Positions 8,241 through 43,800 of a stretch of 44,254 bases of DNA are shown piece by piece. A program made the translations under genes and the position numbers. Under the pieces are notes generated by a model. It was not told where the DNA came from. It was given only the letters and a program-made list of their open reading frames with translations, and ran no database searches. Source of the stretch: a virus; the UHGV virus genome UHGV-1376702; one strand, given 5' to 3'. Each line of letters starts with the position of its first letter. The first letter of the stretch is position 1.

Positions 8241-8260
8241 TGATGTTACAGGAGTAGGAG
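8241..8260 (+). promoter_or_regulatory. conserved motif copy 1 (ATGTTACAGGAGTAGGAG); candidate phage-RNAP promoter
   Basis: One of three identical copies of a 17-19-nt sequence (others at about 29667 and 41572); this copy is intergenic near the putative genome left end. Confidence 0.35.
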
Positions 8261-8527
8261 GGTTTTAGGGCACTATATACACTACTTAATACTAGTCCTT
8301 ACTAGTCCCTACTAGGCACTCACTAGTATGGCCCTGTGCCTACGTAGTAGGCTGCCATAACTACATAGTCACCGCATCACTACGTTCCTTCACTTACGTT
8401 ACGTCACTACGTTCTGCTTTATGTAGTATTAGATAGTATTGGCTAGACGTGGCTAGTATTGGCTACAGCCAGTGTCAGCACAGTGCTATCCCTAGTGGCT
8501 ATCCCTATAATATATAAGGAGTTATAC

Positions 8528-9082
8528 ATGTTACCATCTAGTCGGGCTACGGCTAAAGCCACTGGTAGTACATACTACTACACAGGGAAGCACTGTAAGT
8601 ACCAGCACACGGCAAAGCGCCTCACCAGTTCAGGGGAGTGCTCCGAGTGCTTTAAGATTAGGAGTACCAGCCCAGCTACTAAGGAGCGTATGCGGGAGTA
8701 CCATAAGGTTTATCAGGTACGTAAGGCAGAGGCCTTGAGAGAGTACCGTAAGACACGCCGACCTAAGCACATTATGACAGAGGAGCAATTACAGCGTAAG
8801 GTTCGCCACAATGCGCGATACCGTGCTGCGCGTACTCAATCCGTACCCTCATGGTATGGCGAGTGGGATGAGTTTGTTATGTTGGAGGCTATCGCTTTAG
8901 CAGCCGAGAGGGCGGAGTGTACTGGCATAGCGTGGCATATTGACCATATGCTACCGCTAAAGGCTAAAGAGGTGTGCGGCTTACACTGTGCGGGGAACAT
9001 TCAGGTGATACCCGCAACGCTTAATACACATAAGTGTAACAGGCTGCTATTCACGGAGCCGTTGGAGTGGCTAAAGGCATAA
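8528..9082 (+). CDS. HNH endonuclease with N-terminal zinc ribbon
   Basis: Start refined to ATG 8528 (RBS AAGGAG, TATAAT just upstream); Cys-x-x-Cys pairs near the N-terminus; C-terminal HNH motif AWHIDHMLPLKAKEVCGLHCAGNIQVIPATLNTHKCN. Confidence 0.7.
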   Translation: MLPSSRATAKATGSTYYYTGKHCKYQHTAKRLTSSGECSECFKIRSTSPATKERMREYHKVYQVRKAEALREYRKTRRPKHIMTEEQLQRKVRHNARYRAARTQSVPSWYGEWDEFVMLEAIALAAERAECTGIAWHIDHMLPLKAKEVCGLHCAGNIQVIPATLNTHKCNRLLFTEPLEWLKA

Positions 9083-9088
9083 ACTTGA

Positions 9089-9127
9089 GGTAATACAGTA
9101 CTATAAATGCTGTATTACCTTTTTTTA
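9089..9127 (+). terminator. rho-independent terminator
   Basis: Perfect 10-bp stem GGTAATACAG / CTGTATTACC with an 11-nt loop followed by T7, directly after the HNH gene stop. Confidence 0.6.
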
Positions 9128-9263
9128 TAAAAAGTGCTTGCTTTTTTAAATCTGCTAGGTGTATATTTATCCCATCGAAAGCGATACGGTCTACCGGGTA
9201 GCTCTAGATTCCAGAGTCAACTGGATAAGTAGACAGCCTGATAAGTCATATGAAAAACAGGTA

Positions 9264-9292
9264 TTGACAATAGCAGTAAACGCTTTTATAGT
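9264..9292 (+). promoter_or_regulatory. sigma70-type promoter (TTGACA-N17-TATAGT)
   Basis: Perfect -35 hexamer, 17-bp spacer, 5/6 match at -10; predicted start near 9299-9300. A weaker candidate (TTGCTT-N18-TATATT) lies at about 9138-9167. Confidence 0.6.
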
Positions 9293-9541
9293 TTGAACCA
9301 TGTTGCGGAGCAGTGTAGCGCCTAAAGGTGCTCTGACCACTAACCCTAGATACATGATAGTAGTAAGCGTGCCGGACGTTATCACCGGGGTTCTGAGACA
9401 AACCACACTGTCGAGGCGAGAGCAGCTCGCTCCTCTGAATCGAGGGAACAAGGCGCGGAGAGTATCCCGCAAAGAGCATATAACATAGCGTAGCAGTAAC
9501 AAGGCTGCGCTAGATTATGTTCTCTGAGAGGTAAGAAGATT

Positions 9542-9739
9542 ATGCGCAAAGCAAAGCGTTTAGCTTTACGGCGGAATATGCAGTTATCACTGAATCCCAC
9601 CGACAACGTGCCACTCACTGTGAAGCCAAGTAAACAAGGCCTGAGCTGTGAGCACAGGGTGAGAGGTAAGCAAAAGCAACGTGCTGGCAGTAAACAACCT
9701 TCGGGGTGGTCTACTATGAATGCACAGTTCGGACACTAA
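9542..9739 (+). CDS. small basic protein (hypothetical)
   Basis: 65-aa ORF with RBS GAGAGGTAAG 5-9 nt upstream; very Lys/Arg-rich; coding status uncertain. Confidence 0.3.
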   Translation: MRKAKRLALRRNMQLSLNPTDNVPLTVKPSKQGLSCEHRVRGKQKQRAGSKQPSGWSTMNAQFGH

Positions 9740-9743
9740 TTAC

Positions 9744-9775
9744 AGCCTATAGCATCCTATGGGGTGCTATGTGAA
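9744..9775 (+). promoter_or_regulatory. conserved hairpin element, copy A
   Basis: AGCCTAT + 7-bp stem (AGCATCC/GGGTGCT, one G-U) with 4-nt loop + ATGTGAA; about 40 nt upstream of the start at 9815; second copy at 10533. Confidence 0.4.
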
Positions 9776-9814
9776 GTAATTCGTAAAGTAAACAACCAAT
9801 CAAAGGGGTGCATT

Positions 9815-10399
9815 ATGACTAATTCCACCAATTCAACAGGTAAAGTATTCAAGCTCACCGCTGCTGGCAGCATTCGTAAAGCGCTGGGCGACGTAGTGGA
9901 AGCAAAGCGTAACATCACTATCAGCGCGCTCTTCCACGGCCTGATTAGCAGCAACGTATCATGGGCTACGGATATGCAGCGTAGCGATGCCGCTGACTTC
10001 GATATGGTGCTGCGTACGCTGTTGCCTATCAAGCTCAACAAGGAGTCCGGCAAATATGAGTTCAACGCTAAGAAGTGCTATGTGTCGGCTGAAAAGCTGG
10101 GTATCGAACTGGACACTATGCGTCTGGACTACAAACAAGCTGACAAGCAAGGCCGCGAAGTAATCGTAGCTAGATTTTATAGCTCCTGTATGGCCCTGTA
10201 CGCCGCCGAAGCAGAGCAGGTGAAGAATGACGCACTGGATGCCGATACAGTGCGCCTGCAAGCGCTGGGGCGCGTTAAAAACGCTATTAAGAAGGCTAAA
10301 GAGACTGGCGTAAGCGATGCTGACCTCGTGTCTATGCTGGTATCGCAAGGCGTGGACGTACGCGCTGTACTGGACGCAACTTTGAAGGCAGCGGCATAA
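9815..10399 (+). CDS. hypothetical early protein
   Basis: Start refined to ATG 9815 (RBS AAAGGGG); 195 aa; no recognisable motif. Confidence 0.55.
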   Translation: MTNSTNSTGKVFKLTAAGSIRKALGDVVEAKRNITISALFHGLISSNVSWATDMQRSDAADFDMVLRTLLPIKLNKESGKYEFNAKKCYVSAEKLGIELDTMRLDYKQADKQGREVIVARFYSSCMALYAAEAEQVKNDALDADTVRLQALGRVKNAIKKAKETGVSDADLVSMLVSQGVDVRAVLDATLKAAA

Positions 10400-10532
10400 T
10401 TTATAAAGTTCCGGTTATCAAGTGGTGGGCCTTGTGCCCTGCGGCCAACGATGCCGACGCTTTCGATATCCCTGTGCGGGCAATAGCTCAAAAATGGGTG
10501 TACGAGGGATTGGGCGAGTATCTCTAGTGGCA

Positions 10533-10564
10533 AGCCTATAGCGTCCTACGGGACGCTATGTGAA
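10533..10564 (+). promoter_or_regulatory. conserved hairpin element, copy B
   Basis: AGCCTAT + perfect 7-bp stem (AGCGTCC/GGACGCT) with 4-nt loop + ATGTGAA; about 25 nt upstream of the start at 10589; compensatory A:T to G:C change relative to copy A. Confidence 0.4.
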
Positions 10565-10588
10565 TGCAACTGGCGTATGAGGTGGCAT

Positions 10589-10810
10589 ATGAAAGCAATA
10601 CTGGTTTATCCGGGTCATGAACTCTGGCCCGTGTGGTGCAATCGCAAGTACGACGAATACAACTACACTGTGGTTATATTCTCTGACAAAGACACCAATC
10701 AGGAATCCCCATTCGAATTTGTGGATACCTACACCGAAATGGCTGCCCGCACTGTGCTGGACGCCGTTAATCTTGGCATCATCACCGATTGGAGACAACT
10801 ATATGGTTAA
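10589..10810 (+). CDS. hypothetical small acidic early protein
   Basis: Start refined to ATG 10589 (RBS GAGGTGG); 73 aa, Asp/Glu-rich. Confidence 0.5.
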   Translation: MKAILVYPGHELWPVWCNRKYDEYNYTVVIFSDKDTNQESPFEFVDTYTEMAARTVLDAVNLGIITDWRQLYG

Positions 10811-11066
10811 TGTATTCAACATCATTGTGACCAGCGCTATGCTGGTGCTGGGCAACGACGTAAACAACCCAATCCCATACTGCACAGTGCAGTTGCAGCA
10901 ACCCGCAACGCAGGAACCGCAGCCGCGCCCTGAGTATGACCTCTTTGAAGACCCCGAGGGCGGCTGCAAAGAGCTAGGCGCGCGTATTCTTGCCGCGGTG
11001 CAGGAGCAGTACCCGGACGCCGCCGTTACGCTTACGGTGGACGGTAAGAGCAACAGCGATATTTGA
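10803..11066 (+). CDS. hypothetical small early protein
   Basis: In-frame ATG 10803 overlapping the previous stop (ATATGG); hydrophobic N-terminus then acidic Pro/Gln/Glu-rich region; the upstream part of track ORF 10617..11066 overlaps the previous gene out of frame. Confidence 0.45.
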   Translation: MVNVFNIIVTSAMLVLGNDVNNPIPYCTVQLQQPATQEPQPRPEYDLFEDPEGGCKELGARILAAVQEQYPDAAVTLTVDGKSNSDI

Positions 11067-11144
11067 GGTTGGGCATGCACGGAAAGAATCCTGAGACGCT
11101 GCTAAAGCTAGGCTGCACCCAACCACTCCTACTGGGAGGCTCAC

Positions 11145-11489
11145 ATGATGACGGTAGATGAAGCTGCTGTTTTCATGTGGAAGCTGCTGGAAACGCAGGG
11201 CAAGTGCGGGTGCCCTTGGGGAACATTCAAAGAGGTTCCTAATGAACTCAAGCAAATCATACCGGTCGAGCGCAGACTCCTCCGTGTTCGTAGGCAGGAC
11301 TCTACGGTGGTGCTCACAACCTATCGCGAGTATACAGAATCTGCCGCGCGGCAGTTGCAAGAGCACATTCAGTTCGATGTGGTTGCAGCACTGCTACGGT
11401 ACGGGTATCGTGGAGCATATACAAGATTTAGGGCGGCAGTACGGGCATATTATAAGCAAGCGCAGATCGCTGCATGGTACGCACGCTGA
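11145..11489 (+). CDS. hypothetical early protein
   Basis: 114 aa; RBS GGAGG before ATGATG; protein-like composition, unlike the overlapping frame. Confidence 0.5.
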   Translation: MMTVDEAAVFMWKLLETQGKCGCPWGTFKEVPNELKQIIPVERRLLRVRRQDSTVVLTTYREYTESAARQLQEHIQFDVVAALLRYGYRGAYTRFRAAVRAYYKQAQIAAWYAR

Positions 11490-11538
11490 CTTAGTGGTTG
11501 GCGATGAACTCAAAGAACCTATTCAGGAGCAAACTAAA

Positions 11539-13215
11539 ATGCAAGAGACTAACACAGCACCTATCGAATGGAAAATCGTATTACCGGAAGGTGCAAACGC
11601 ACTGCCGATTAAAGAATCAATGTATTCCAGCGGTGATTACTGGACCCCGTTCCAGGACTTGCAAATGCAAGGGGAGGACCATCCCCACACTGAGGGTCCG
11701 CTGCAGGTGCTTATGGGTCTCCGCACTGTCAGTGCGCACACTCCAGGCTTAGAGGTGACTATAGGCGGGGCACTGCACCCAGAGTATCGCGAATCAACGA
11801 TGACGCTCGGCCCGTTGCAAAAGGTGGACCTGTACCGGTCCGGAACTTTCTGCGAACTCTTTGAACCGGTGCGAATCACCATAGACAGCAAGTTCTGGGA
11901 ACGCCGCCGCGACTTCTATGAGGGCGAGGATGTAGTGGTTGAGCGCGTAGTTGCTTGCGTCGAAGAATTCACAGGTTACAAGGTGCACAAGCAGGCCGTG
12001 CAGTTATTTGAGCGCATCATGCTTGCACCAGAAGAGCAGCAGCGCCGCTTATACACTGGCTACGATTACGGCCGCCACACCCGCGATGGCAACTTAGCTG
12101 CGCTGCTCATGAAGTTGCACGGATTCATAGTATCTAGATTCGCCGTGCCATTGGGCTTTGGTTTCCGCAACGGTGAGCCTATCGTGATGCTGGGGCAGCC
12201 GCGGATGCACAAGGACTTCGCCGCAGTTACCGAGTACCGTTGTGTGGAGATGCGCGTAGGTAAGTGGCTCGCTAACTACTACGGCAATGGCGTAGACTTC
12301 CGCGATGCTATCGAAGACCTCAAGGCTATGAACGTAGAGCCTACAACGTACCTGTGCAAGACCGAGCAGGAATGGTACGACTCCTACGAGAATGGCCCGA
12401 GTAGCTGCATGAGTGGATACTCATTTGAGCATAGCCCGGTGCGGGTGTATGCTACTACCAGCCACGGGCTGCCGGACAACGGGCTGCGCCTGTTCATCCA
12501 GTACACCGGGGAACTGTTCGGGGATGACTTCGAAGTGCAGGCACGGGCAATCGTTAACACAGAAACTAACGAGTACGTCCGCGCTTACGGCAACGCTGCG
12601 GATGCAATCCTGCGGGGGCATGGGTACACCAAAAACATTGAATGTCTCGAAGGGGTAATGCTGGCGCGAATACCGCACCCAACATACAACGGCGCAGTGC
12701 TGATGCCATACCTAGATAGCAGCCAGTGCGGCGTAGATGAGTATGGGGATGATGCCTTTGTAATCCGTGATGCTTATGAGTACGAGGCACAAGACTCAGA
12801 AGGATACATCTACGTAGGCACTGAGTCTGCTGGGTGCTGCTGCTGTGAATGTCGCTACTCTGTAGATGACATGCAGGAGACCGCAGATGGTGATATGGTC
12901 TGCGACGGCTGCGTAGAAGAAGGGGATTTTGTGTACGTAGTTGGGCGTGATGGTCTGCATAATCGCTGGAGCTGCACCTGGTCTGATTACCACGACGCCT
13001 ATGTATACGACGAGGACATAGAGCGCTGCGAAGTAGAGGGTGTAGTGCACGACCAAGAGGAACTGGTGTTTGCACAGGACCGGCAAGTGCTTATTGAACA
13101 CGCAGAAGAACACCCAGTGCACGGGTTAATTCTCACTGAGCATGCAGCTGATTGCTTGGGAGAGAAGTACCTGGGAAACGATGAAGATGAAGAAGAAGCA
13201 GAGGAGGCAGCTTAA
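11539..13215 (+). CDS. large early protein of unknown function (Cys cluster, acidic C-terminal tail)
   Basis: Start refined to ATG 11539 (RBS AGGAGC); the 127-codon 5' extension in the track has junk-like composition. 558 aa; CCCCEC and CDGC clusters near the C-terminus; ends NDEDEEEAEEAA. Confidence 0.55.
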   Translation: MQETNTAPIEWKIVLPEGANALPIKESMYSSGDYWTPFQDLQMQGEDHPHTEGPLQVLMGLRTVSAHTPGLEVTIGGALHPEYRESTMTLGPLQKVDLYRSGTFCELFEPVRITIDSKFWERRRDFYEGEDVVVERVVACVEEFTGYKVHKQAVQLFERIMLAPEEQQRRLYTGYDYGRHTRDGNLAALLMKLHGFIVSRFAVPLGFGFRNGEPIVMLGQPRMHKDFAAVTEYRCVEMRVGKWLANYYGNGVDFRDAIEDLKAMNVEPTTYLCKTEQEWYDSYENGPSSCMSGYSFEHSPVRVYATTSHGLPDNGLRLFIQYTGELFGDDFEVQARAIVNTETNEYVRAYGNAADAILRGHGYTKNIECLEGVMLARIPHPTYNGAVLMPYLDSSQCGVDEYGDDAFVIRDAYEYEAQDSEGYIYVGTESAGCCCCECRYSVDDMQETADGDMVCDGCVEEGDFVYVVGRDGLHNRWSCTWSDYHDAYVYDEDIERCEVEGVVHDQEELVFAQDRQVLIEHAEEHPVHGLILTEHAADCLGEKYLGNDEDEEEAEEAA

Positions 13216-14261: not shown

Positions 14262-14263
14262 TT

Positions 14264-14910: not shown

Positions 14911-15676
14911 AGCGTGCAAGCGCCTGGCCGTGGGGCAGAGGGCACGCTTTCGGTGCTGCGGCAGGGACGCCGCCGGGGTGCTCTACAATAACCCGGATGC
15001 CTGGGAATACTATTGCCACCGCTGCAAACAGGTGGGCAAGGAGCACAAGCAGTACCAGCGCATACAGTTACAGGAAGAGCCGAGGGTGCAGCCCTCTGCA
15101 CCTGCAGATGCAATTTGCATTAGCCAAGCGCCTGCGGAAACGCAGAGTTTTATTTACGGATTCCTGACCACAAAGGGAATCATGCCTGAAATGGTGGAGG
15201 ATGCAGAATGGAGCAAAGAGAAACAGCGGATAATCTTCCGTGTCGGAAGCGCTGCTCTAGGCCGTGCAGTGCATGCTCGGCAGCAACCGAAGTGGGTAAT
15301 GTACGGCCAGCCAATAGCTTTCGCTGTCGCGGCACCTGCCGTAGCACCGGCTGTAGCTGCGGCCGCACCTCTAAAGGTCGTGCTCACCGAGGACTTACTC
15401 TCAGCCCGGAAGATACAGCACGCAGTTACGAGCTACAGTGCGTTGAACGTGCAGGCTATAGCTATGCTGGGTACACGCTTGCCCACGCCGCTGAGGGCTT
15501 GGCTGATACAGAATCGCCCGGAAGTGATTCTGATGCTGGACAATGACCCAGCAGGGCACGCTGGAGTAGCGGCGGCGCGCCGCGCACTGCGTCCGTTCAT
15601 GCAGTGTCGTGAGCATTACTTCGCTGCGGACCCGAAGGATGCAGAAATCAAAGAGATTCTGGAGGCTTTACAATGA
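14891..15676 (+). CDS. DNA primase (zinc ribbon + TOPRIM)
   Basis: 261 aa; N-terminal CCG...CHRC zinc-ribbon; TOPRIM-like acidic motifs (VVLTEDLL and ILMLDNDPAGHAG). Confidence 0.75.
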   Translation: MDQPWLRACKRLAVGQRARFRCCGRDAAGVLYNNPDAWEYYCHRCKQVGKEHKQYQRIQLQEEPRVQPSAPADAICISQAPAETQSFIYGFLTTKGIMPEMVEDAEWSKEKQRIIFRVGSAALGRAVHARQQPKWVMYGQPIAFAVAAPAVAPAVAAAAPLKVVLTEDLLSARKIQHAVTSYSALNVQAIAMLGTRLPTPLRAWLIQNRPEVILMLDNDPAGHAGVAAARRALRPFMQCREHYFAADPKDAEIKEILEALQ

Positions 15677-20946: not shown

Positions 20947-20989
20947 GAATTAATGTGATACGAGTAGGAACAACACAAGAGGATACCGA

Positions 20990-21424
20990 ATGTCGATGTG
21001 TATTGACCACGGGTATAACAAATGCCTTAACAAGAACGGATACCGCCGGGCATGGTATAAGCCGACCAGGCGATTGGAGCTGCTGCATCGGGTGGTGTAT
21101 GCTGAGCATAACGGGCTGGATATAAGGGCGCTGGCTGGCCTGTCTGTTAGACATACCTGCGATAACCCCAGGTGCATTAACCCTAAGCACTTAGTATTGG
21201 GAACGCATATGGATAATATGCGGGACCGTGCAGAGCGCGGAAGGAACCCAGATGTGCGTGGGGATAGGAACCCAAAAGCGCAGTTAACTTGGGATGCTGT
21301 GCAGGATATCAGGGATAACTATATCCCATACAAGAAAGGTATGCGGCAACACTTTGCTAATAAGTACGGTGTAGGTGTACATGTAATTAGTGACGTAATA
21401 AGTAACAGGAGCTGGAATGCCTAA
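20990..21424 (+). CDS. HNH homing endonuclease
   Basis: 144 aa; RBS AAGAGGA; motifs CIDHG, HR, VRHTCDNPRCINPKHLVLGT...N. Confidence 0.8.
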   Translation: MSMCIDHGYNKCLNKNGYRRAWYKPTRRLELLHRVVYAEHNGLDIRALAGLSVRHTCDNPRCINPKHLVLGTHMDNMRDRAERGRNPDVRGDRNPKAQLTWDAVQDIRDNYIPYKKGMRQHFANKYGVGVHVISDVISNRSWNA

Positions 21425-22397
21425 GTTAAACACAATAAAGCTATTCACCAAAGAGCAACACATAGATATCTTGAGCAAGCACAGCTCTAACGTGGATGCT
21501 GCTGCCGCCTATAATAAGCTGGCGGGACTGGACGAGCCAGTGGTGTATCGACAGATGGTGAAGTACTGGCGCAGCATATTCCTAGACCACGCTGGGAGCA
21601 AGGGTAAGGCAATATCACACATGAAGGAGGCACTAAAGCTCATACAGCCCAGTCCCACTGATGACATCGGCAAAACCTTCGTGCCGGAAGTGTGCCACCG
21701 TATTCTCGTAGTTGGGGATTTGCATGCCCCCTATACGCACGTAGATGCTATGGCCTTCTTAGAATCTGTGCGAGACGCCTACTGTCCGGACATGGTTGTA
21801 CAGGTAGGCGACGAGACGGACGGCCACGCTATATCATTCCACGAAAGTAACCCGAACCTGGATAGCGCCGGGGTGGAGCTGGAGAAAGCTAAGCTCGTAC
21901 TGGAGGAGCTACATGAACTGTTCCCGAACCTATTGGTTTGCGATTCCAATCACGGCAGTCTGGTTTACCGCAGGGCGAAAGCTCACGGGCTACCAGTGCA
22001 ATTCATCAAGAAGTACCGAGATATACTTTTCCCTGAACATGGTGCCCCGGCGTGGTCTTGGGCTGACGCGTGGGTACTCAATACCCCACTTGGCCCGGTT
22101 AGATTCCAGCATCAAGTGTCGGGTGACTTCATGCTCAACGCTAGCCACGAAAGAACCAGCCTTGTCCTTGGTCACGAACATGGTCGCTTTGAGGTGCAAT
22201 ATGCAGCTAGCTCAACAGCTTTGTACTTTGGTGCGTATGCTGGGTGTCTGATTGACCGTAAGAGCATGGCCTTTGCTTACGGCAGACTCACCCGCAAGAA
22301 ACCAATCCTGGGTGTGATGGTAATCACCGAGGGTTGCCCGCAGTTAATTCCGATGCTGCTTGACGACGATGGTCGTTGGGTTGGTCGTACTAAATAA
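21417..22397 (+). CDS. calcineurin-like metallophosphoesterase
   Basis: 326 aa; GDLH ... GDETD ... CDSNHG motifs in canonical order (GDxH, GDxxD, GNH). Confidence 0.6.
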   Translation: MPKLNTIKLFTKEQHIDILSKHSSNVDAAAAYNKLAGLDEPVVYRQMVKYWRSIFLDHAGSKGKAISHMKEALKLIQPSPTDDIGKTFVPEVCHRILVVGDLHAPYTHVDAMAFLESVRDAYCPDMVVQVGDETDGHAISFHESNPNLDSAGVELEKAKLVLEELHELFPNLLVCDSNHGSLVYRRAKAHGLPVQFIKKYRDILFPEHGAPAWSWADAWVLNTPLGPVRFQHQVSGDFMLNASHERTSLVLGHEHGRFEVQYAASSTALYFGAYAGCLIDRKSMAFAYGRLTRKKPILGVMVITEGCPQLIPMLLDDDGRWVGRTK

Positions 22398-24706: not shown

Positions 24707-25673
24707 GATTATCAACGGGGTTGACTTGTCCCAGCTCGGGGAGCAGTTAGCTCCGCAGAACTCTGGGAAGATTCTGCTGTACGACGCGGATTTCACAGTT
24801 TATAAATCTGCTGCTACAGTGAAACGTTTGGATACCGCGATACGCCGCTTCTATCAGCTGGTGCTTGAGGACATGTTCCTGGTCGGCTGCTCAGAAGCAG
24901 TGGCGTATCTGACGCCTACGGGGTGTGCTAAGTGCCTGCGCTGGCACCTGCCTACGGCTAAGCCGTACCAAGGGAACCGCAATAAGCGTCAGGAGCTGCC
25001 ACTCAAGGCACCGTTGAAGCGGCACCTGATTGAGAACCCGGACCAGTATTCTGAGCATGGCATACAAGTGGTAAGCAGTGACTACTTTGAGGCCGACGAC
25101 CTATTTGTAATGGATTCGTACAGCTTCGGGGGCCGGGGAATCCTGATGTCACAGGACAAGGATTCTTGGCTCAGCCCTATGGCTCGGTTCGATATCCCTA
25201 CCGGAACCGTGTGGCCTGCCTTGGATAACCCATTCGGCTGGATTAAGTGGGATGATACCCAGGCTATGCCGGTACGAGCGCATGGCACTAAGTTCTTCTG
25301 GTGGCAAATGCTAGCAGGAGATGACGCAGATAACGTCAAAGGCATCACATTGCTTGATGGAAAGCTCTGTGGGAAGCGAACGGCCTTTGATGCTATCAAC
25401 CCTATTACCTCAGAGCAGGACGCCGCAGAATTCGTTGTAGCGGCCTATGCTCGAAACAACCAAGACGTACTCGCAGAGGCAGAATGCCTGTGGCTGAGGC
25501 GCTCCCAATCAGATTCAGCGTACCTGTATCTGATGTCACTGTTGACTACTCCCAGTCTGCGTGACTGGGTGCATTCTCTGCACGAGTACCATAAACAGCA
25601 CATACAGTGGATACAGGAGCACCCAGACAATGGCGAAGATGTCTGCGAAGGAGATGAGCCTGCGGGCGATTGA
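24705..25673 (+). CDS. 5'-3' exonuclease (T7 gp6 / FEN-like)
   Basis: 322 aa; acidic clusters in gp6-like order (LLYDADF, EADDLFVMDSY, SQDKD, GDDADNVKGIT); located after DNA polymerase. Confidence 0.65.
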   Translation: MIINGVDLSQLGEQLAPQNSGKILLYDADFTVYKSAATVKRLDTAIRRFYQLVLEDMFLVGCSEAVAYLTPTGCAKCLRWHLPTAKPYQGNRNKRQELPLKAPLKRHLIENPDQYSEHGIQVVSSDYFEADDLFVMDSYSFGGRGILMSQDKDSWLSPMARFDIPTGTVWPALDNPFGWIKWDDTQAMPVRAHGTKFFWWQMLAGDDADNVKGITLLDGKLCGKRTAFDAINPITSEQDAAEFVVAAYARNNQDVLAEAECLWLRRSQSDSAYLYLMSLLTTPSLRDWVHSLHEYHKQHIQWIQEHPDNGEDVCEGDEPAGD

Positions 25674-27192: not shown

Positions 27193-29661
27193 ATGATTAG
27201 CGCCCTGAATACGGTTGTAGTACCAGAGGAAGCACTGGTGAAACGCCAGCTGGAGCTCGAAGAGACCTATAAGATTCGCGGAATCGAGCGGGCACGTAAG
27301 CTGATTACGGACGCATTGCAGAACGGCGGGATTATGAACCTGCCGATGACGCAGCGTATGCTCACCTCGGCATATGAGGTGGCTGCTGCCGCTATCGACG
27401 AGATGCGAAACGTCAAAGTCCCGGGCATTGGTGGTAAGTACCGCCGGTTCCTGCGCTTAGTCCCCTTGGATGTCCTGACCACACTGAGCCTGTGCACAAT
27501 GTTTGAAGCGTTTAGCGTCGCCCCCGGCGAGTCTGCTAGTCGCCGCCAGACTGCGCAGGCGGTAATGTCCGCACTGGGCCGGAACGTGCAGTCAGAGCTA
27601 CTGGCTCTGCAGTTACGCAACGTAGCCCCAGCGTACATGGACCGAGTATATGAGTATCTCACAGAGCGCCGTACGAAGTCCCCTACGCACATCCTGCGTA
27701 CGCTCCGTGCCAGTGCCGAGAATGTGCACTATGGGCACGAGCCTTGGACCAATGCCCAGAACATCTCCGTAGGGCGTCTGCTGTGTGCCGCGGTGTTTGA
27801 GACTGGCTTGTTCCAGTGGAAGACAGGTAGCGGGAACCTGAGCATGCTCTACCCGGCTGATGACGTTATGGAGGCCTTCCAGAAACTGGTGGAATCTGCC
27901 GACACTGTAACGATGAAGCCGCCTATGCTGGTCCCCCCGGTGCAGCACACCACTATGTGGGATGGTGGGTACCTTACTCCTATCGACAACCGCGGTACGT
28001 ACCATAACTCGCACATCGACCGCTCCAGGCTGCGTGAAGTGGCGGAAGCATTTAAGTCCGCGGATGGCATCAAGAAGGCGCTTAATAAGGCACAGGAAAC
28101 CCCATACCGTATTAATAAGCGCATACTGGAACTGGTGCAAGAAGCACGGGCCCTGGGTATTGGGATAGGTATGCCCCGCTCAATACCGGAGCCGAAGCCT
28201 GAGTGGTACTTGGATGGTGTACCAAAAGAGAACTACACCGAAGAAGAACTGGACCGCTTCGGTGAGTGGAAGACGCGTATGTCCCTGTGGTACAGTGCTG
28301 ACCGTAAGCGTGTGTCGCAACTACGCAGCCTTCTGACTACGTTGGAGATGGCAGAGGAATTCAAAGATGAGAAAGCCCTGTACTTCCCGACTTGTGTGGA
28401 CTGGCGCTACCGCCTGTACTTCAAGTCCTCGTTGCACCCGCAGGGTTCTGATTTGCAGAAGGCTCTGCTGGAATTCGGTAGAGGTAAACCTCTTGGAGAG
28501 AGAGGGTTGTTCTGGCTTAAAGTGCACGTCGCCACTTGCTTTGGTTATGACAAAACCCTATTCGAAGACCGCGCAGATTGGGTGGATAAAAATATGGCAG
28601 TTGTCCGCTCAGTTGCAGAGAATCCATTTGATTCGGACGCTTTTAAGCAGGCCGATTCACCGTGGTGTTTCTTGGCAGCAGTGCTCGACCTGGTGGCTGC
28701 TCTGGATTCTCCGTGCCCAGAAGAGTACATCTCCAGAACTCCGGTTGCTATGGACGCCACAAACTCAGGTGGACAGCACCTCTCAGCGCTCCTGAGAGAC
28801 CCTGTAGGCGGTCGTCTGACGAACCTGTACTGGGAAGGTAACGACAAGAAAGCGGACCTGTACATGGACGTGAAGCGCCGCACGGATGAGAAGGTGATAC
28901 TGGACCTGGACAAGGAGGATTTCGTTATCCAGAGCACGTACTGGAGAGAGAACGAAATCACCCGCAGCATGACCAAGCGCCCAAGTATGACCTACTTCTA
29001 CAGCGCCACGGTGCGTAGCTGCAGCGACTACATCTTTGAAGGCGCTTGCGCTGAGGGATACGAGGGTACCGATACTAACAGTCTGTGGAACCTGTCGTGC
29101 TACCTGGCACCGCGTATGCGCGCCGCTATAGAGGAGGCAAACCCCGCTGCTGCGGCAGTTATGGGGTACTTGCAGAATCTCGCTAGACGCGTACCGGCAA
29201 GCCAGCACCTGCAGTGGTATACGCCGCTGGGTGGGCTCGTAATGAACCGTTACACGCAGCGTGAAGAAGTGCGTGTACGTATTGACTGCATGAACCTGTC
29301 AGCGGTACTGGTACACAACCGGGACTTCAAAACTTGTAACAAGCGCAAGGCGGCCTCCGGGATTGCCCCAAACTTTGTGCATAGCCTGGACAGTACGCAC
29401 TTGATGATGGTGCTCTGCGCTGCGGAGGGGTTGGACATTGTGCCTATTCACGACTCGCTGGCTACTCACGCAGCTGACGTCGACACTATGCATAGGCACA
29501 TCCGTGAGCAGTTTGTGCGTCTATATGAAGAGAATGACCTGCTTGGCGATATTACTCGGGCAGCGGCAGCAGCCGGGGCAGACTTGACGGACCTGGACAT
29601 GCCAGAGGTGGGCACTTTGGACATCCGGCAAGTGCTAGAATCCCCGTTCTTCTTCTGCTAA
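27193..29661 (+). CDS. single-subunit DNA-directed RNA polymerase (T7-like)
   Basis: 822 aa; catalytic motifs DATNSGGQHLSALLRD (T7: DGSCSGIQHFSAMLRD) and PNFVHSLDSTHLMM (T7: PNFVHSQDGSHL). Confidence 0.95.
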   Translation: MISALNTVVVPEEALVKRQLELEETYKIRGIERARKLITDALQNGGIMNLPMTQRMLTSAYEVAAAAIDEMRNVKVPGIGGKYRRFLRLVPLDVLTTLSLCTMFEAFSVAPGESASRRQTAQAVMSALGRNVQSELLALQLRNVAPAYMDRVYEYLTERRTKSPTHILRTLRASAENVHYGHEPWTNAQNISVGRLLCAAVFETGLFQWKTGSGNLSMLYPADDVMEAFQKLVESADTVTMKPPMLVPPVQHTTMWDGGYLTPIDNRGTYHNSHIDRSRLREVAEAFKSADGIKKALNKAQETPYRINKRILELVQEARALGIGIGMPRSIPEPKPEWYLDGVPKENYTEEELDRFGEWKTRMSLWYSADRKRVSQLRSLLTTLEMAEEFKDEKALYFPTCVDWRYRLYFKSSLHPQGSDLQKALLEFGRGKPLGERGLFWLKVHVATCFGYDKTLFEDRADWVDKNMAVVRSVAENPFDSDAFKQADSPWCFLAAVLDLVAALDSPCPEEYISRTPVAMDATNSGGQHLSALLRDPVGGRLTNLYWEGNDKKADLYMDVKRRTDEKVILDLDKEDFVIQSTYWRENEITRSMTKRPSMTYFYSATVRSCSDYIFEGACAEGYEGTDTNSLWNLSCYLAPRMRAAIEEANPAAAAVMGYLQNLARRVPASQHLQWYTPLGGLVMNRYTQREEVRVRIDCMNLSAVLVHNRDFKTCNKRKAASGIAPNFVHSLDSTHLMMVLCAAEGLDIVPIHDSLATHAADVDTMHRHIREQFVRLYEENDLLGDITRAAAAAGADLTDLDMPEVGTLDIRQVLESPFFFC

Positions 29662-29666: not shown

Positions 29667-29685
29667 TAATGTTACAGGAGTAGGA
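29667..29685 (+). promoter_or_regulatory. conserved motif copy 2 (TAATGTTACAGGAGTAGGA); candidate phage-RNAP promoter
   Basis: Identical 17-mer core immediately downstream of the RNAP gene and directly abutting the ATG at 29686. Confidence 0.35.
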
Positions 29686-30126
29686 ATGAAGTTAAAACAC
29701 ACTAGTAAAACTTCCGACTACACTCTCAAGGTTCTGTATAAATCTGACGACGTTACAGACGCAGTGAAGCAACTGCACGAACTGGGCCATGGCATTAGTC
29801 GGGGCCTGGCTCCAGAGCAGCACTACTGGAGGGTGTTGGGAAGTATACTGGGTAAACAGTATATACTAGGAGTCTATGACTCCAAAGGCGACTTAGTCGG
29901 TGCTGTCAGCTACTACCCAGAGGCTGTAGAGGACTGTCATTACGTAGAGCCTGTGCTGTATACAGACTTCTTCGTATTGAAACCGGACAACGGCGCGGCA
30001 GTGTCTGTGATTATGCAGGGCCTGCACGCAATAGCCAAGTGCATGCGCGCTGGGCGTATCGCCATTAGCCGAAGCACGTCCAGTAACACGTACAAAACAA
30101 CTTATCATTTAGTGAGGTCAGAATGA
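29686..30126 (+). CDS. hypothetical protein
   Basis: 146-aa ORF, A+T-richer than neighbours; no secure motif. Confidence 0.5.
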   Translation: MKLKHTSKTSDYTLKVLYKSDDVTDAVKQLHELGHGISRGLAPEQHYWRVLGSILGKQYILGVYDSKGDLVGAVSYYPEAVEDCHYVEPVLYTDFFVLKPDNGAAVSVIMQGLHAIAKCMRAGRIAISRSTSSNTYKTTYHLVRSE

Positions 30127-32873: not shown

Positions 32874-33893
32874 ATGGCCAACACTATTTATAATGGCAAC
32901 CTGACTCGTCCGCACTGGGGCGGCGCAGACTCCGACGTAGACGTTCACCTGGAAGTGTACCAGAACGAAGTGGATACCCGCTTCCAGTACCAGGCTCTAT
33001 TCCTGGGCCTCTCCAGCCAGCGCTCTATCAGCGGTTCCAACACCTACCGTATTGACCGACTGAACACCTCCTCGGTGAAAGGTCGTCGCTCCGGTGAGGC
33101 GCTGGATAGCACTCCGGTCCGTAACGATAAGATGATTATCGTGGTGGATACGGTGCTGTATATCCGTAACCCGATTGACTACCAGGATGACTGGACCGGT
33201 CCGGACTTCCTGACTGAGATGGGCCAGAACAACGGCTCGGAGTTCGCGGAGACCTTCGACCAGGCGCACCTGATTCAGCTCATCAAGGGCCGTTCCTGGG
33301 TTGCTCCGGCGCACTTGAAACCGGCGTTCAACGACGGTATCGAGGTAGGCGCAGCTATCCTGGTTCCGGGTACCACCACCGCCACTCAGCTGACCCAGGC
33401 TGAGATGGAGGCGAACGCCATGAACATCAACCTGGCCCACAAGGCTGGTATTGACGAACTCATCAAGCGTAAGACCCCGCTGGCGGACATGATTACCCTG
33501 GTGGACGTCGATACCTATTCGCGTCTGCTGGAGCATCCGAAGCTCCTGAACCTGGACTTCGGCGCGTCCAACAATGATGGTTACAAAGACCGTCGTGTAG
33601 TGAAGATGAACGGTGTACCTGTAGTTGAGTGCACCGAGTTCCCGACCGCTGCTGGTACGCACCCGCTGGGCTCCGCTTACACCATCACCGCTGACGACGC
33701 GCTGTGCCGTATGGTGACTTTCAGCAAGTCCAAGACCCTGGTGACTGTTGAGGCTAAGCCGTTCACCTCCCGTATCTGGGATGATGAGCGAGAGTTCAGC
33801 AACGTGCTGGACTGCTACGCAATGTACAACATCGGTCTGCGTCGTCCGGACACCGCTGCAGTGACCAAGTTCACCTTCACCACCAAGTCCTAA
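32874..33893 (+). CDS. major capsid protein
   Basis: 339 aa; RBS AAGGAAA; co-linear resemblance to T7 gp10A (e.g. KMIIVVDTVLYIRNPIDYQD versus T7 KVITIDGLLTADVLIYDIED); followed by a strong terminator. Confidence 0.85.
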   Translation: MANTIYNGNLTRPHWGGADSDVDVHLEVYQNEVDTRFQYQALFLGLSSQRSISGSNTYRIDRLNTSSVKGRRSGEALDSTPVRNDKMIIVVDTVLYIRNPIDYQDDWTGPDFLTEMGQNNGSEFAETFDQAHLIQLIKGRSWVAPAHLKPAFNDGIEVGAAILVPGTTTATQLTQAEMEANAMNINLAHKAGIDELIKRKTPLADMITLVDVDTYSRLLEHPKLLNLDFGASNNDGYKDRRVVKMNGVPVVECTEFPTAAGTHPLGSAYTITADDALCRMVTFSKSKTLVTVEAKPFTSRIWDDEREFSNVLDCYAMYNIGLRRPDTAAVTKFTFTTKS

Positions 33894-34474: not shown

Positions 34475-34512
34475 GCCCCTGGTGCCTTCGGGTGCCAGGG
34501 GCTTTTTTTTTG
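34475..34512 (+). terminator. strong rho-independent terminator (UUCG tetraloop hairpin + U9)
   Basis: CCCCTGGTGCC-TTCG-GGTGCCAGGGG (11-bp stem with two G-U pairs) followed by nine T; analogous in position to T7 T-phi after the capsid gene. Confidence 0.75.
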
Positions 34513-37487: not shown

Positions 37488-37488
37488 T

Positions 37489-38076: not shown

Positions 38077-38093
38077 CTTAAGAGGAATGTCAA

Positions 38094-40778
38094 ATGCCTG
38101 TGATTCAACCCAGTAGACAGGGGTTAAATATCGGAGGAGTGCAACTGCAGTCCAACGATGTTAGCTTACCGTCAACGGTAAGTGAGGTGTCTGTTGATAC
38201 CTCCAAAGCAAAACGCCTAGCTGCCCTGTCAGGGTTCGTGCAGGACTTCGGCGTAGGGTTTGACGAAGCAGTAAAAGAAAACGCTGCAGCCGCCACGGTG
38301 CGCGGCGCAATGGATGCCCAGGGCGCAGTAGATGCAATGGCTTCCAAAGATGAGGCTGTACAGAAGCAGAACATCTTCGTACGCGAGGCCTATCAGGATG
38401 GCTACGTATCCGCCGCTGCATACGACTCTCTAGCCAAATGGCGCACGGATAGCATCGCACGAGCTAAGAAAGCTGCTGAGTCTGGTCTGACTGACGAGGA
38501 GTTCCAGCAGCAAGAGCAAGAGCACGTACAGTCAATGGCAGACAAGCTCGGGATGTATCTCCCGGACATGTCCAAACAGTCTGCCACGAATATACTGCAG
38601 CAGCTCCGTGCTACGAGCATGGCGAACTATACAGCCTTCCAGAAAGGGCGCGCGGCGTTTGCCGTGGCTCAGGCTGACCGCGCACTTGACCGTGGCCTCA
38701 GCTCGTCCAGTGATGAGTTCTATCAGCGTCTACAGGCAGGACAGGGTGCCGCCGCGCAGATGTCTATCAAGACCGGCTTAGACAGCATCCTGGCTGCTGA
38801 GCACCTGGACAAGAGCAAGAAGCTGGACCGGGCCAAGCAGTATCTGGTCAGCGTAGCGCAGCAGACTCAGGACCCGCTGGTAATCAACCAGCTGCAAGGA
38901 CTGGCTACCAAGGAACTCGGGGTTAACTCAGTGGACGTCAACGCGGCTCTGTATCAGGAGTTCAAGCGCGCTGGTGCTCAGATTGAGACGCAGGCCCGTT
39001 TTGAAATCTCTGACACAATCTCTTCCTTAGAGGGGCAGACTCCTGAGCAGCAGGAACAGACTATGGCGCGCATTCGTAGTCGTGTCATTGAGCTGTCGGC
39101 ATCGGACGTGCTCAGCGCTGGAACCAGCATGGAGTTCTGGAACAAGGCCCAGACCATTCGTGAGAAGGCAGCGGACACCCAGGCATTGCGCACAGCGATT
39201 ACTGGGAACATGCCAAGCTCCACCCTGGCGGGGATGTACAAGGGGGACCTGGGTAAGGCTCGCAGCGAGCTGCTCAAGAGCTTTCCGGATACCCCGGAAG
39301 GGAACCTGCAGCTGCTGGCATACGGAAGCAACAGCAAGGATGCGTGGGCCGTCAACGAGGCGCACAAGCGTATGTCTTCGGACATGGCACGTACACTGAC
39401 TACGCTGGACCAGCTCGGTGAGGACGGTGAGGTTTCCCGTGAGAACGTCAGCAGCATCAACTTGTGGGCACAGGCTTATAGTACCAGTACGGACTTAGGT
39501 AAGATGGCGCTGCTGTCTGAGGTACCGTCTGAGTGGCAGGGGGTGGTGCAGAAAGCTATCGCACAAAACCCGAGCAATGCCAGCGATACTATTTTGGATG
39601 ACCTGCGCCGCCAGGCACGTAACAAGGCCAGTGGGCGCTACAGCAATATCCAGAGTAACCCAACTGACAAGATGGTGGACCCTAGTGGCACCAGCAACTG
39701 GTTCAGTTTCTTCGGTGATGCCGACGCTCAGCGCCAGGAAGCGCGCGCTGCTATGGAAGAGGAGTATCGTTATACGTACAGCCGCAATCCGGAATCTCTG
39801 GTAGGTAAGGATGCTGAGGACATCAACACGATGCTCAAAGGCAACATCCAAGCCCGTAAGCTGGAGCTGGAGATTGCAGGCACACCGAGGCACGTGTATC
39901 TGCCTGCAGGTACCTCTCTGCAGTCTATCATGGGCGACTACAAGGGCGACCAGGAGCAGTTCAAGGCTACTCTGCAACAGCAGATTCAAAACCAAGTCCA
40001 GGCCATCACCGACCCCAGCAACATGGAACGTGTAGTGGTGCAGGCTGCCACAGCAGGCAACGCGGGTCAGAACATGACCGTAACCGTGTTCGACAAGAAG
40101 GGCACATTCCAGACTATGTCTGTGAACCTCCGTGACGTTCAGGCTACTGCGCAGGCTGCGTACGATTCGGCACTGGCTGGGGATATGAAGATTGGCAGCG
40201 AGCAAGTGGGCGTACGTCCTGCCACCTTCTACGACCACGACAATGGGCGCGCTGTCAGCGTACAGGTCAACGGTCGTAACGCGGTGGGGCTGGAACCATC
40301 GCTGTTTAGTGACATCCTCGCCACCACTATGAAGTTCGAAGGGTTCCGAGAAGGCAAGGGCAGGGGTAGCGTAGGCTTCGGTCTGCACGTTAACTCGGGC
40401 ATGCCTGTCCCTCAGAAAGTAACCATTGACGACGGTATCAGTATCCTTAAATCCTCTATGGAGAGGCAGTACGTTCCGAACGTGCAGAAGCAACTCAAGG
40501 GGCAGGGTTTGAATGCCTCCGATGAGGCGTTAAAGGTTATGGTGGACCTGAACTATCACGGTGGTAACGGTAGCTCTGGTCCTGTAGCAGAGGCGATGGC
40601 ACAGGTACGTAAGGCTGCCAAGTCCCCGGTGGGGGCGTATCAGTATCCTGTATCTGAGGCCCAGGGTAGGGCTTGGCAAGCGCTGAGGAATACCCCGGCG
40701 TACAAGCAGGCCCAACCTGAGCGTAAGAAGTACCTGGAACAAAACCTACGTGATTGGCTCTTTGAGGCAACACACTAA
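38094..40778 (+). CDS. internal virion protein with C-terminal lysozyme-like domain (gp15-like)
   Basis: 894 aa; helical Gln/Ala-rich body; C-terminal segment MKFEGFREGKGRGSVGFGLHV resembles a lysozyme-type E...G..G.G core (inference). Confidence 0.65.
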   Translation: MPVIQPSRQGLNIGGVQLQSNDVSLPSTVSEVSVDTSKAKRLAALSGFVQDFGVGFDEAVKENAAAATVRGAMDAQGAVDAMASKDEAVQKQNIFVREAYQDGYVSAAAYDSLAKWRTDSIARAKKAAESGLTDEEFQQQEQEHVQSMADKLGMYLPDMSKQSATNILQQLRATSMANYTAFQKGRAAFAVAQADRALDRGLSSSSDEFYQRLQAGQGAAAQMSIKTGLDSILAAEHLDKSKKLDRAKQYLVSVAQQTQDPLVINQLQGLATKELGVNSVDVNAALYQEFKRAGAQIETQARFEISDTISSLEGQTPEQQEQTMARIRSRVIELSASDVLSAGTSMEFWNKAQTIREKAADTQALRTAITGNMPSSTLAGMYKGDLGKARSELLKSFPDTPEGNLQLLAYGSNSKDAWAVNEAHKRMSSDMARTLTTLDQLGEDGEVSRENVSSINLWAQAYSTSTDLGKMALLSEVPSEWQGVVQKAIAQNPSNASDTILDDLRRQARNKASGRYSNIQSNPTDKMVDPSGTSNWFSFFGDADAQRQEARAAMEEEYRYTYSRNPESLVGKDAEDINTMLKGNIQARKLELEIAGTPRHVYLPAGTSLQSIMGDYKGDQEQFKATLQQQIQNQVQAITDPSNMERVVVQAATAGNAGQNMTVTVFDKKGTFQTMSVNLRDVQATAQAAYDSALAGDMKIGSEQVGVRPATFYDHDNGRAVSVQVNGRNAVGLEPSLFSDILATTMKFEGFREGKGRGSVGFGLHVNSGMPVPQKVTIDDGISILKSSMERQYVPNVQKQLKGQGLNASDEALKVMVDLNYHGGNGSSGPVAEAMAQVRKAAKSPVGAYQYPVSEAQGRAWQALRNTPAYKQAQPERKKYLEQNLRDWLFEATH

Positions 40779-40828
40779 CTAGAGGCCCTCCGGGGCCTCC
40801 CCTTATCAAAATTCTTTTAGGAGATATT

Positions 40829-43800
40829 ATGGCTCAGTTTCTGAACCAAGAACCGAATCCACAGGAAAAGGATTCTGCTAAGGGCGCAACACTTAAACCT
40901 GCGCCTGAGCGCGTAGATTGGAACGATGCCGGAGACAACGGCTTAAACGCACTGGAGCGTGCCTCCTTACTGGCGCAGGCCAAGACCCCAGCTACTACAG
41001 CCGGGGAGAGCTTTGCGTCTGGTATGGGTAACAGCATCATCGCCGCAGCTATCCGTAAGGCCTCTGCCCCGGCATTTGACCGGGACCAGAACTTTAACGC
41101 CAAGCAGACTCTGAGCAGCGATACCAGGGCTAAGCTGTATGCTCCGAATCAGGAAGAGATTGAGTACCTGCACGACTCTGTATCGGTCGAGGATTACAAC
41201 TACCGCATGCAGCAGATGCTTGAGCAACGCAACCGTGACCGCTTAATGGCTGACAACACGGTAGCCGGGTTCGCGGGTATGTTGGTGGGTGATTCTCCGT
41301 TCATCCTGGCCCCGATGTCTGCCGCTGGTATTGCTGGCCGCGCAGGCTTAGCTGCACGGACTGCTATCCGCGCTGCTGACGTAGGCTCCGCATTCTATGC
41401 GCAGGACCAACTGGGCCAGTCTGCTGCGGTAACTGCACTGGTAGCGGGCGTAGCTGGGTTGGACCAGCTCTGGGATATGTCTAGGGCTGCTAAAGCTGCT
41501 GCTAAGGCTCGTACTGGGCGTGAGCCTATGTTCGACCCAGAAGCGCCTACAACTCGTACAGCGAGGGACGCTAATGTTACAGGAGTAGGAGAGGGAGAGG
41601 AAATTCTCACTAAGACACTGGGTGAAAGCATCCAAGTATCGAGAAACAATACCGCCTCCGTGAACATGAAAGCACAGCACGTAGTTCAGTTCTTGAAGAA
41701 GTCTGAGCACTTGACAGCAGGACAGAAGGCTATTCTGGACACGCTGGGCGATGCTGTAAATGACATTGATTTTAAACTGGTAGCAGGCTCCGCAAACCGT
41801 AGCCGCTACACTTACGCACAACAAGATTTAGCTAAGCGTGGAGAGATATCCCTGCGCGCGCCTAAGCAAGCTAACGGCAGCACCTGGACTACAGTCGGTG
41901 ATGCGCTGCGCGCTATGGATGCAGATACAAGCAAGGTGGCCGTGCACGAACTGATTCATGCCGCTACTGCGCGCGCCATTGACAGTAATCCCGAGATTGC
42001 TAAACGCCTGGAGGAAGTGCGCGCTGTTATTGCAGCTGACTCCACCCTGACACCGCGTATGCGGTATTACGCAAGTAATGTGCATGAGATGCTGGCAGGT
42101 TTAGGCGACAGCCCTGAGTGGGTTGAGCACCTGGCACGTACGCAGTCTCCCACCGGTAAGAGCATGCTCCGCCAACTGGGTGAGTACATCATGAATGCCT
42201 TGGGCATCAAAGCCAAGGGCTCTGCCTTGGAGGATGTCCTGGATGCGTATGAGGACGCAGTTAAGTGGACCGCTAAGGATTATGCAGACCAAGCCCAGAG
42301 CTTCCGTAGCGAAGCCTTCCAGGACCTGGCGGGCAGCACCACCCTCAATGAGGCTAAGAGCGCCCAAGCTATGCTGGACGGCGCCAAGAAGAAGCTCTCC
42401 ACTATGTTTGCCCTGTACGATAATATCGCTCAAGGCAACGAAGACTTGGCTAAACTGCTAGTGTCGGATGCGTCCGCAGTAGGCGGCCGTCGCCCGTCAG
42501 TGGTAGACTACAAGCGTAACCTCACTTTGGAGATGGATGCTCGCGCCAGCGTAGTGGAAGATGCTATCCTGGGTGCGTTGAAGGATAAGGGTGTAGGGGT
42601 GCTCTCACGCTTCTTCCATCGTAGTAATTTCCGCGCTGAGCGGGCTGCGCTGGAAGACCGCCTGAGTAAGTACCTGGATGCTGCCTACAGCGCTGACGTA
42701 AACGGTCGCGCTGTTCCGGTACCGGATGCAGAGATTGCTCCGCTGGTTGATGCCTATCATCGCTCTGGCTGGGCTAGCAAGTGGCATGATCACATGACCG
42801 CTGCTGGCTTGGTGGATGATGGTGCGTTGGTTAAATCCGACTACTACTTCCCGCGCCAGTACAGCTACGACAAGATGCGCCAAGGTATCGCACAGGGTAA
42901 CACTCTGGATGACTACCGCGCCCTGTTCCGGTCCGCCCTGCGGGACGTGTACCCGAGCATGGAGTCAGAGGTAGTGCAGCGTGTTGCTAAGGAGATGGTT
43001 GACGGTATCTACAACGGCCGTGCTGGGCAGTCTGGTCCTATGTGGAAGCAGCTGATTAACGGTATGGGTAACGACGAGGTCGTTATGGCTATGCGTAGCG
43101 CTGGTGTAGAAGAGTCTGCAATCCAGAGCTTCCTGGCTGGTAACGTACGAGAATCCGGCAGCACATCCCCTGCGCGGAACCTGCGTCAGCGTACTCGGTT
43201 CAACATGGACAAAGAGTACCTGATTAACGGAAAGAGCATGCGCATGCAGGACCTGATGGATACTGACGTAGCCAAGGTTATGCACGGGTACACTAACCGT
43301 ATGTCTGGACGTGTAGGCATGGCCTATGCAGGCGTACAGGACCTGGGGCAGCTCGCTAAGATGATTGATGAGTCTAAGCACGCACTGGCGGATTCCGCTA
43401 AGTGGGAGAAGACCGTTAATGACACCATCGACTTTATCCTGGGCGGGGCACCTGCTGACGCCGGGCAGCTTCCGGACTTGCTGCGAGCAGCTGGGAACAT
43501 GGCTAACGCTACCATGCTTAAGAACTCCGGCCTGTATCAGCTGACTGATACTGCTCTGGCTATGAAGGAGTTCGGTATGGCTAGAGTGCTGCGCAGTATG
43601 CGTGACCAGCCTTGGTTCAAGGAAGGTGCCGTAGCTATCAATACTCCGGATATGGCTGCCCGTCTAGACACCGTGCTGCGAGGCAATATCCAGAAGGAGA
43701 TGCGATTCCGCTGGCTGAATACATACGCTGACGATAACCTGGACCTGACCCGTCAGGCCTCCTGGTTCAACGTCACTCAGAACGTCGGGCAGGCTGCACG

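Follow-up and report, generated by a model that had tools for sequence, protein, structure and literature searches.

A 17-nt sequence, ATGTTACAGGAGTAGGA, recurs letter for letter at three dispersed positions in this phage DNA, and the question it raises is whether the repeat carries a function and, if so, which. We analyzed the complete stretch of 44,254 nt (the window), in which exact matches lie at 8243-8259, 29669-29685 and 41574-41590, all on the + strand; these are the three copies reported in the initial annotation, and there are exactly three. A k-mer census of the window identifies ATGTTACAGGAGTAGGA as the sole dispersed three-copy exact repeat longer than 13 nt; the other three-copy items are a tandem GCGCTTCCTGT array (7929-7973) and the 13-mer ACCTGCAGATGCA, which occurs at 15100 (+), 17697 (-) and 43998 (+). 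The identity was also said to extend into the flanks, and it does so for pairs of copies, with TAATGTTACAGGAGTAGGA (19 nt) common to copies 2 and 3 and ATGTTACAGGAGTAGGAG (18 nt) common to copies 1 and 3; it does not hold for all three, as copy 1 reads TGATG and not TAATG, and beyond the shared stretch the flanks of the three copies are unrelated.

A repeat of this kind could be a chance event or the remnant of a duplicated coding segment, and dozens of 13-15-mers do occur twice in the window by chance, which is all that favors such an origin. When up to three mismatches to ATGTTACAGGAGTAGGA are allowed there are five matches in the window, against an expectation of 0.09 from 100 dinucleotide-preserving shuffles, none of which reaches five; the earlier statement that the copies exceed chance is therefore borne out even under this relaxed matching. 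Only one of the three copies is coding, the unrelated flanks give no sign of a duplicated segment, and the sites are conserved and syntenic across the genus. We consider an origin by chance or duplication to be the least credible of the explanations weighed here, with a probability close to nil.

The window is a Klebsiella Drulisvirus (KP34-like) genome in circularly permuted form, with the gene order of KP34, and alignment to the annotated terminus of KpV71 places its physical left end at about 7757. It encodes a single-subunit RNA polymerase of 822 aa (27193..29661, + strand) that is 96% identical to the KP34 RNAP. For the RNAP region there are 252 matching phage records, nearly all of them Drulisvirus Klebsiella phages and mostly at 90-99% identity; at least 80% of the region is covered by 245 phage records, most of them again 90-99% identical. 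The repeat overlaps a 16-nt element, T(A/G)ATGTTACAGGAGTA, which is matched at 16 of 16 positions at all three sites. Copy 1 (8241..8256, +) is TGATGTTACAGGAGTA, the TGATG variant or 'S2', with G at -15, while copy 2 (29667..29682, +) and copy 3 (41572..41587, +) are TAATGTTACAGGAGTA, the TAATG variant or 'S1'. The homologous positions of KP34 are 475-490, 22197-22212 and, inside gene 48, 33721-33736; the sequence is identical at all three, including the G at -15 of the left-end copy.

This element is an already known, experimentally characterized promoter; the experiment and the promoter family are both in the literature. Purified KP34 RNAP initiates in vitro from T(A/G)ATGTTACAGGAGTA and transcribes a template that spans its own gene and the adjoining downstream gap (Lu et al., 2019; PMC6834552). 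By 5'-RACE most KP34 starts map to nt 22213, the G right after the motif (PMC6834552); the next KP34 gene begins at 22216. The two 16-mers, TAATGTTACAGGAGTA (at 22197 and 33721 in KP34) and TGATGTTACAGGAGTA (at 475), support equal run-off transcription by KP34 RNAP, and their common 14-nt core alone is much weaker than either (PMC6834552). The PhageProm study (NAR 2025; PMC11880802) predicts 467 KP34-like promoters in 135 genomes, about 3.5 per genome, and the window copies belong to the same promoter family. We conclude, with a probability of about 0.95, that the three copies are strong promoters of the phage's own T7-type single-subunit RNAP. The initial annotation had read the repeat as a phage-RNAP promoter consensus, and this is supported by the KP34 in vitro data (PMC6834552) together with the co-variation between the sites and the polymerase specificity loop described below; on the identity of the 16-mers with those of KP34 and on this co-variation the assignment rests, and activity in the window phage would follow by homology.

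The setting of the sites agrees with this role. All three occupy the KP34 positions and are co-oriented with the genes, and the layout proposed in the initial annotation (left end, after the RNAP gene, last internal-virion gene) is correct at each location and the same in KP34. Some 485 nt separate copy 1 from the inferred physical left end, and the best sigma-70 match of the early region, at 9264-9292, is downstream of it. A scan for sigma-70 promoters (-35/-10 hexamers, 16-18 nt spacing) gave no match overlapping 8241, 29667 or 41572. Copy 2 begins 5 nt past the RNAP stop codon (29659-29661). Copy 3 lies 743 nt into the gene for the last internal-virion protein, the homologue of KP34 gene 48 (+ strand, from ATG 40829 to 44254 and continuing at 1-273 across the window junction), where it reads ..A-N-V-T-G-V-G.., and the fibre, terminase, lysis and tailspike genes follow downstream. 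By homology with KP34, where the GGA start region is the same, transcripts are predicted to start at G 8257 (copy 1), G 29683 (copy 2) and G 41588 (copy 3). The copy 2 start leaves a 3-nt leader (GGA) before ATG 29686, the same start-to-ATG distance as at the gene after the KP34 RNAP gene. The window differs from KP34 in being a separate isolate, for which starts and activity are predicted from sequence, in an A to V change in the AT-rich recognition loop of the RNAP (MRNVKVPG in the window, MRNVKAPG in KP34; the only residue of that loop that differs), and in an extra gene (8459-9082) between copy 1 and the host-type promoter region.

If the three sites are recognized by the phage polymerase, they should be retained in its relatives, and the initial annotation had likewise made the promoter reading depend on the presence of the motif in related genomes. 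The sites are kept in KP34, KpV71, Minorna and KMI6, at the same syntenic positions, and in 65 IMG/VR loci. Neither the members of Slopekvirinae outside Drulisvirus that we examined (PAS7 and Koutsourovirus KKP 3828) nor the Maculvirus Vibrio phage OWB has them. Our comparative sample comprised these 65 IMG/VR loci around the portal gene and 54 left-end loci, many of them from one metagenome (3300045988) and some representing the same isolates as GenBank records. Conservation spans all 16 positions of the motif, with two alleles at -7, A or C (TTACAGGAGTA and TTACCGGAGTA). Alleles are never mixed within a genome (0 of 36 loci with at least two sites), and in 50 of 50 contigs the allele of site 1 recurs at sites 2 and 3. 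The A/C difference at site 3 is in the wobble position of a Thr codon (ACA or ACC) and is synonymous, so selection at this site acts on the DNA.

The -7 allele is matched by the polymerase. In an alignment of the RNAPs only columns 704 (A versus I) and 706 (L versus R) separate the two allele groups perfectly, and both residues lie inside the specificity loop, which reads NLSAVLVH in one group and NLTIMRVH in the other. Allele and loop agree in 64 of 64 loci, 33 with SAVL and A and 31 with TI(M/L/V)R and C; KMI6, with the loop SIMR, has C at all three sites. The specificity loop of the window RNAP, EEVRVRIDCMNLSAVLVHNRDF, comprises residues 691-712 (encoded at 29263-29328; also given as NLSAVLVHNRDF, identical in KP34) and was placed by alignment to T7 RNAP, with which the window RNAP shares 27% identity over its full length, and from Table 5 of Eriksson et al. 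(2015). Residues 601-764 of the window RNAP, the loop included, are identical to the KP34 RNAP. We also considered an exact equivalence of 704 and 706 to the T7 contact residues, and set it aside; BLASTP and MAFFT place the length difference in the loop differently (a 5-residue and a 3-residue gap, respectively), and we go no further than placing both residues inside the specificity loop. The pairing does not reflect one clonal split, since 8 allele changes are needed on a tree of the site 3 flanks and 6 on a tree of the RNAP gene, both of them approximate neighbor-joining trees of short recombining segments. The same two loop subgroups were tabulated by Eriksson et al. (2015), to whom the promoter was then unknown.

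Co-variation of this form is what would be expected of a polymerase-recognition element, and argues against chance as well as against two other functions for the repeat. The first is translational: the motif could be AGGAG, a strong Shine-Dalgarno sequence, together with its surroundings, recurring ahead of genes. At copy 2 the AGGAG does sit 5 nt upstream of ATG 29686, and the annotation of Minorna has a ribosome-binding site at the homologous position. A purine tract 5-10 nt before a start codon is found at copy 2 only; no start codon lies within 60 nt after copy 1, copy 3 is in frame inside a gene, the conservation of all 16 positions goes beyond AGGAG, the -7 base co-varies with a polymerase loop, and the sequence drives transcription in vitro in KP34 (PMC6834552). 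A translation signal is thus very improbable as the function of the repeat, and copy 2 alone probably doubles as a Shine-Dalgarno sequence for read-through transcripts. The AGGAG that would serve ATG 29686 in this way lies upstream of the predicted copy 2 start.

The second is a non-promoter signal in the DNA itself, which might mark a site-specific nick or serve replication or packaging, and the closeness of copy 1 to the genome end would suit it. Localized nicks are reported in the phiKMV relative phikF77 (cited in PMC4411677), and Eriksson et al. (2015), drawing a parallel with a phiKMV relative, proposed nick sites for a conserved motif, although a different one. Direct initiation from the 16-mer in KP34 (PMC6834552) speaks against a signal of this type, as does the fact that the sites co-vary with the RNAP specificity loop and not with any nuclease or terminase. 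We give such a signal very little weight as the function of the repeat, although a promoter might have a further role of this kind, and return to the three copies as promoters.

As a promoter, the motif resembles those of the T7 group (phiOL, phi1.1A/B and phi17 of T7, and those of T3 and SP6) in function and departs from them in sequence. Both are short duplex elements for a single-subunit RNAP, with copies co-oriented with the genes, and they share the 5' TAAT, TA at -2/-1 and G at +1. The T7 promoter phiOL precedes the host promoters close to the left end of its genome; copy 1 is placed in the same way, and copy 2, directly after the RNAP gene, is placed like phi1.1A. The core is unrelated, with 3-6 of 16 identities to TAATACGACTCACTATA by hand count (6/16 with the 5' ends aligned, 3/16 with the start sites aligned), and the T7, T3 and SP6 consensus was not found in the specificity region (-12 to -5). 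The description of the repeat as unlike T7, T3 or SP6 promoters accordingly stands for the core, and needs amending for the shared TAAT, TA and +1 G; the motif works like a T7 promoter, yet is outside that sequence class. The architecture differs too. The window RNAP gene ends the DNA-metabolism region (the phiKMV-type layout) and is not at the left end, and the window has three strong copies versus 18 promoters in T7 (PMC11880802).

The way in which T7 RNAP reads its promoter part by part is well established from polymerase-promoter complexes, and we use it as a guide to the window motif. We propose that the 822-aa RNAP binds the 16-bp T(A/G)ATGTTACAGGAGTA as duplex DNA, and on the model of T7 RNAP its N-terminal recognition loop would read TAAT/TGAT, the AT-rich 5' part, its specificity loop would read the middle part, -7 included, and the segment from -4 to +3 (AGTA/GGA) would be melted for initiation at the G. 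Transcription would then run rightward from the G just downstream, in the direction of all the genes. Following the T7 scheme, the phage RNAP may read the early and DNA-metabolism region, its own gene included, from copy 1; copy 2 may serve the portal-scaffold-capsid block as far as the terminator at 34475; and copy 3 may boost the fibre, terminase, lysis and tailspike genes. This terminator, a hairpin followed by T9 (34475..34511, + strand), lies downstream of the capsid gene block, has the same sequence as the KP34-group terminator in Eriksson et al. (2015), and is probably a partial stop for copy 2 transcripts. Lu et al. (2019) attributed a shorter in vitro product to a stop at a hairpin terminator (PMC6834552). 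The KP34 'weak promoter', from which initiation is weak and imprecise (PMC6834552), also has a homologue in the window, ACTTTGGACATCCGGCAAGT (29614..29633, +), identical at 19 of 20 positions and located inside the 3' end of the RNAP gene. The outcome is a transcription map of three rightward phage-RNAP units, with starts predicted to the base and one terminator, which can be of use in the annotation and engineering of a therapeutic-type Klebsiella phage.

Are there further sites? The initial annotation had suggested an exhaustive search for degenerate copies, which we performed with the 16-mer and up to 4 mismatches in the window and seven whole relatives; besides the three sites, a match at 20951 alone looks meaningful. 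This candidate fourth, divergent promoter (TAATGTGATACGAGTAGGA, 20951..20969, +) agrees with the strong promoter at 13 of 16 positions, the mismatches being at -10, -8 and -6. It is located between genes, downstream of the DNA polymerase region and 23 nt ahead of ATG 20990, and is invariant in 50 relatives of both alleles, within a conserved block of about 95 nt. A sigma-70 reading of the site was rejected, with no acceptable -35/-10 pair found; TTGATT-N18-TAATGT, aligned by hand, scores 7/12. PAS7 and OWB each have a repeated motif of their own, with one copy immediately following the RNAP gene and another at the equivalent place past the DNA polymerase gene; OWB has a further copy some 0.9 kb inside the last internal-virion gene. 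Because this layout is conserved in PAS7 and OWB, a role of the 20951 site as a weaker promoter is plausible. Two other degenerate matches, at 15063 in the primase gene and at 25144 in the exonuclease gene, are conserved but coding and mismatched at -4 to -1, and we treated both as coding conservation.

The promoter is already in use as an in vitro transcription reagent and in itself brings no new biology. The modest addition made here is comparative, namely that the three copies and two loop residues switch together across the genus, which gives the promoter assignment independent support. A literature search with the exact motifs found Lu et al. (2019) and a review, and nothing for the C allele; a search for transcription-start mapping in a Drulisvirus found no relevant paper. 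The link between A or C at -7 and loop residues 704/706 was not found stated in the literature searched, and the protein-DNA co-variation analysis of PhageProm covers T7-like pairs only (PMC11880802). We put forward, at about even odds, that Drulisvirus comprises two co-evolved polymerase-promoter specificity classes, one with A at -7 and SAVL (A704/L706; the window and KP34) and one with C at -7 and TI(M/L/V)R (I704/R706), that the pairing has been kept through repeated recombination, and that a possible fourth, divergent promoter, TAATGTGATACGAGTA (20951), is invariant in both. If the classes discriminate, Leu-to-Arg and a new G:C pair would amount to a one-residue, one-base-pair specificity switch; the switching of loop and promoter across the genus points to what may be two natural, mutually orthogonal polymerase-promoter systems.

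Promoters had also been proposed elsewhere in these genomes. The proposals of Eriksson et al. correspond in the window to two 32-mers, at 9744-9775 and 10533-10564, and a template over the 32-mer region was not transcribed in vitro by Lu et al. (PMC6834552). Both 32-mers are conserved and fold to hairpins of 10 bp that differ between the copies by a compensatory change.

Each of the three copies of the strong promoter in the window carries a base at position -7 (8250, 29676 and 41581) that is either A or C across Drulisvirus genomes. The identity of this base at all three sites matches residues 704 (Ala or Ile) and 706 (Leu or Arg) of the phage RNA polymerase (RNAP), which fall within the specificity-loop segment (residues 691-712, encoded at 29263-29328 within the RNAP gene). 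The match has no exceptions in about 64 related loci and the pairing holds although the flanking sequences are mosaic. This covariation suggests that the RNAP-promoter pairs of Drulisvirus form two co-evolved specificity classes, with the window belonging to the A/SAVL class. In many phages with the C allele, site 2, the copy associated with the RNAP gene, takes the form TGAAGTTACCGGAGTA and has a different upstream flank, gataaa (KMI6, L005, at 28166; also loci such as L009, L020, L021 and L027). In KMI6 the RNAP gene is separated from the downstream gene by an annotated HNH endonuclease gene, and site 2 of this type is found directly 5' of that downstream gene rather than adjoining the RNAP stop codon.

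In the window, transcription from copy 2 would start 3 nt before the ATG at 29686 (29683-29688), which opens the following gene (29686-30126). For this gene the ribosome-binding site would be an AGGAG within the promoter itself, 5' of the transcription start; with only a 3-nt leader, the mRNA made from copy 2 would thus be nearly leaderless. The same arrangement is seen in KP34, where the start is at 22213 and the ATG at 22216. A homologue of the KP34 'weak promoter', which was compared to the Syn5 promoter by Lu et al. (2019; PMC6834552), is present on the plus strand at 29614-29633 (ACTTTGGACATCCGGCAAGT, 19/20 identical), in the 3' end of the RNAP gene.

A further promoter-like site, TAATGTGATACGAGTAGGA (20951-20969, plus strand), matches the promoter at 13 of 16 positions, and at 16 of 19 across 19 nt. 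It occupies an intergenic gap past the DNA polymerase region, with an ATG following 23 nt later at 20990, and the sequence around it is conserved over about 95 nt, a block opening with an AT-rich tract and TTGACT. The site is unchanged in 50 Drulisvirus loci, representing both promoter alleles. It may be a fourth phage promoter, weaker than the other three, and does not figure among those described by Lu et al. (2019; PMC6834552).

The KP34 motif is absent from two relatives outside Drulisvirus, Vibrio phage OWB (L007) and Escherichia phage PAS7 (L004), each of which has a repeated motif of its own: TAAAGTCCCACG(A/T)ACAGG in OWB (11863, 19303 and 30918) and GTAT(G/C)ACTATAAGATA in PAS7 (11658 and 19224). 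Both have one copy immediately past the RNAP gene and another downstream of the DNA polymerase gene, while OWB has a further copy about 0.9 kb inside the last internal-virion gene. These motifs are candidate promoters for uncharacterised polymerases, and the promoter layout seems to be kept between Drulisvirus and these phages while its sequence diverges.

Two plus-strand copies of a 32-nt motif, AGCCTATAGC(G/A)TCCTA(C/T)GGG.., are found in the early region at 9744-9775 and 10533-10564. The motif was put forward as a phage promoter (Eriksson et al., 2015); a PCR fragment of the region gave no transcription in vitro (Lu et al., 2019; PMC6834552). Each copy folds into a stable hairpin of 10 bp (z = -3.5 and -4.8), and a G-C pair in one copy is replaced by A-U in the other, a compensatory change; the motif may act in RNA processing or stability.

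The segment 7757-8130 is the genome-end region in this circularly permuted assembly; the left terminus would lie near 7757 by comparison with KpV71, which has a 246-bp terminal repeat. The region contains a run of 11 G (7813-7823) and four GCGCTTCCTGT units in tandem (7929-7973), and is also rich in short CTAGTG-type repeats.
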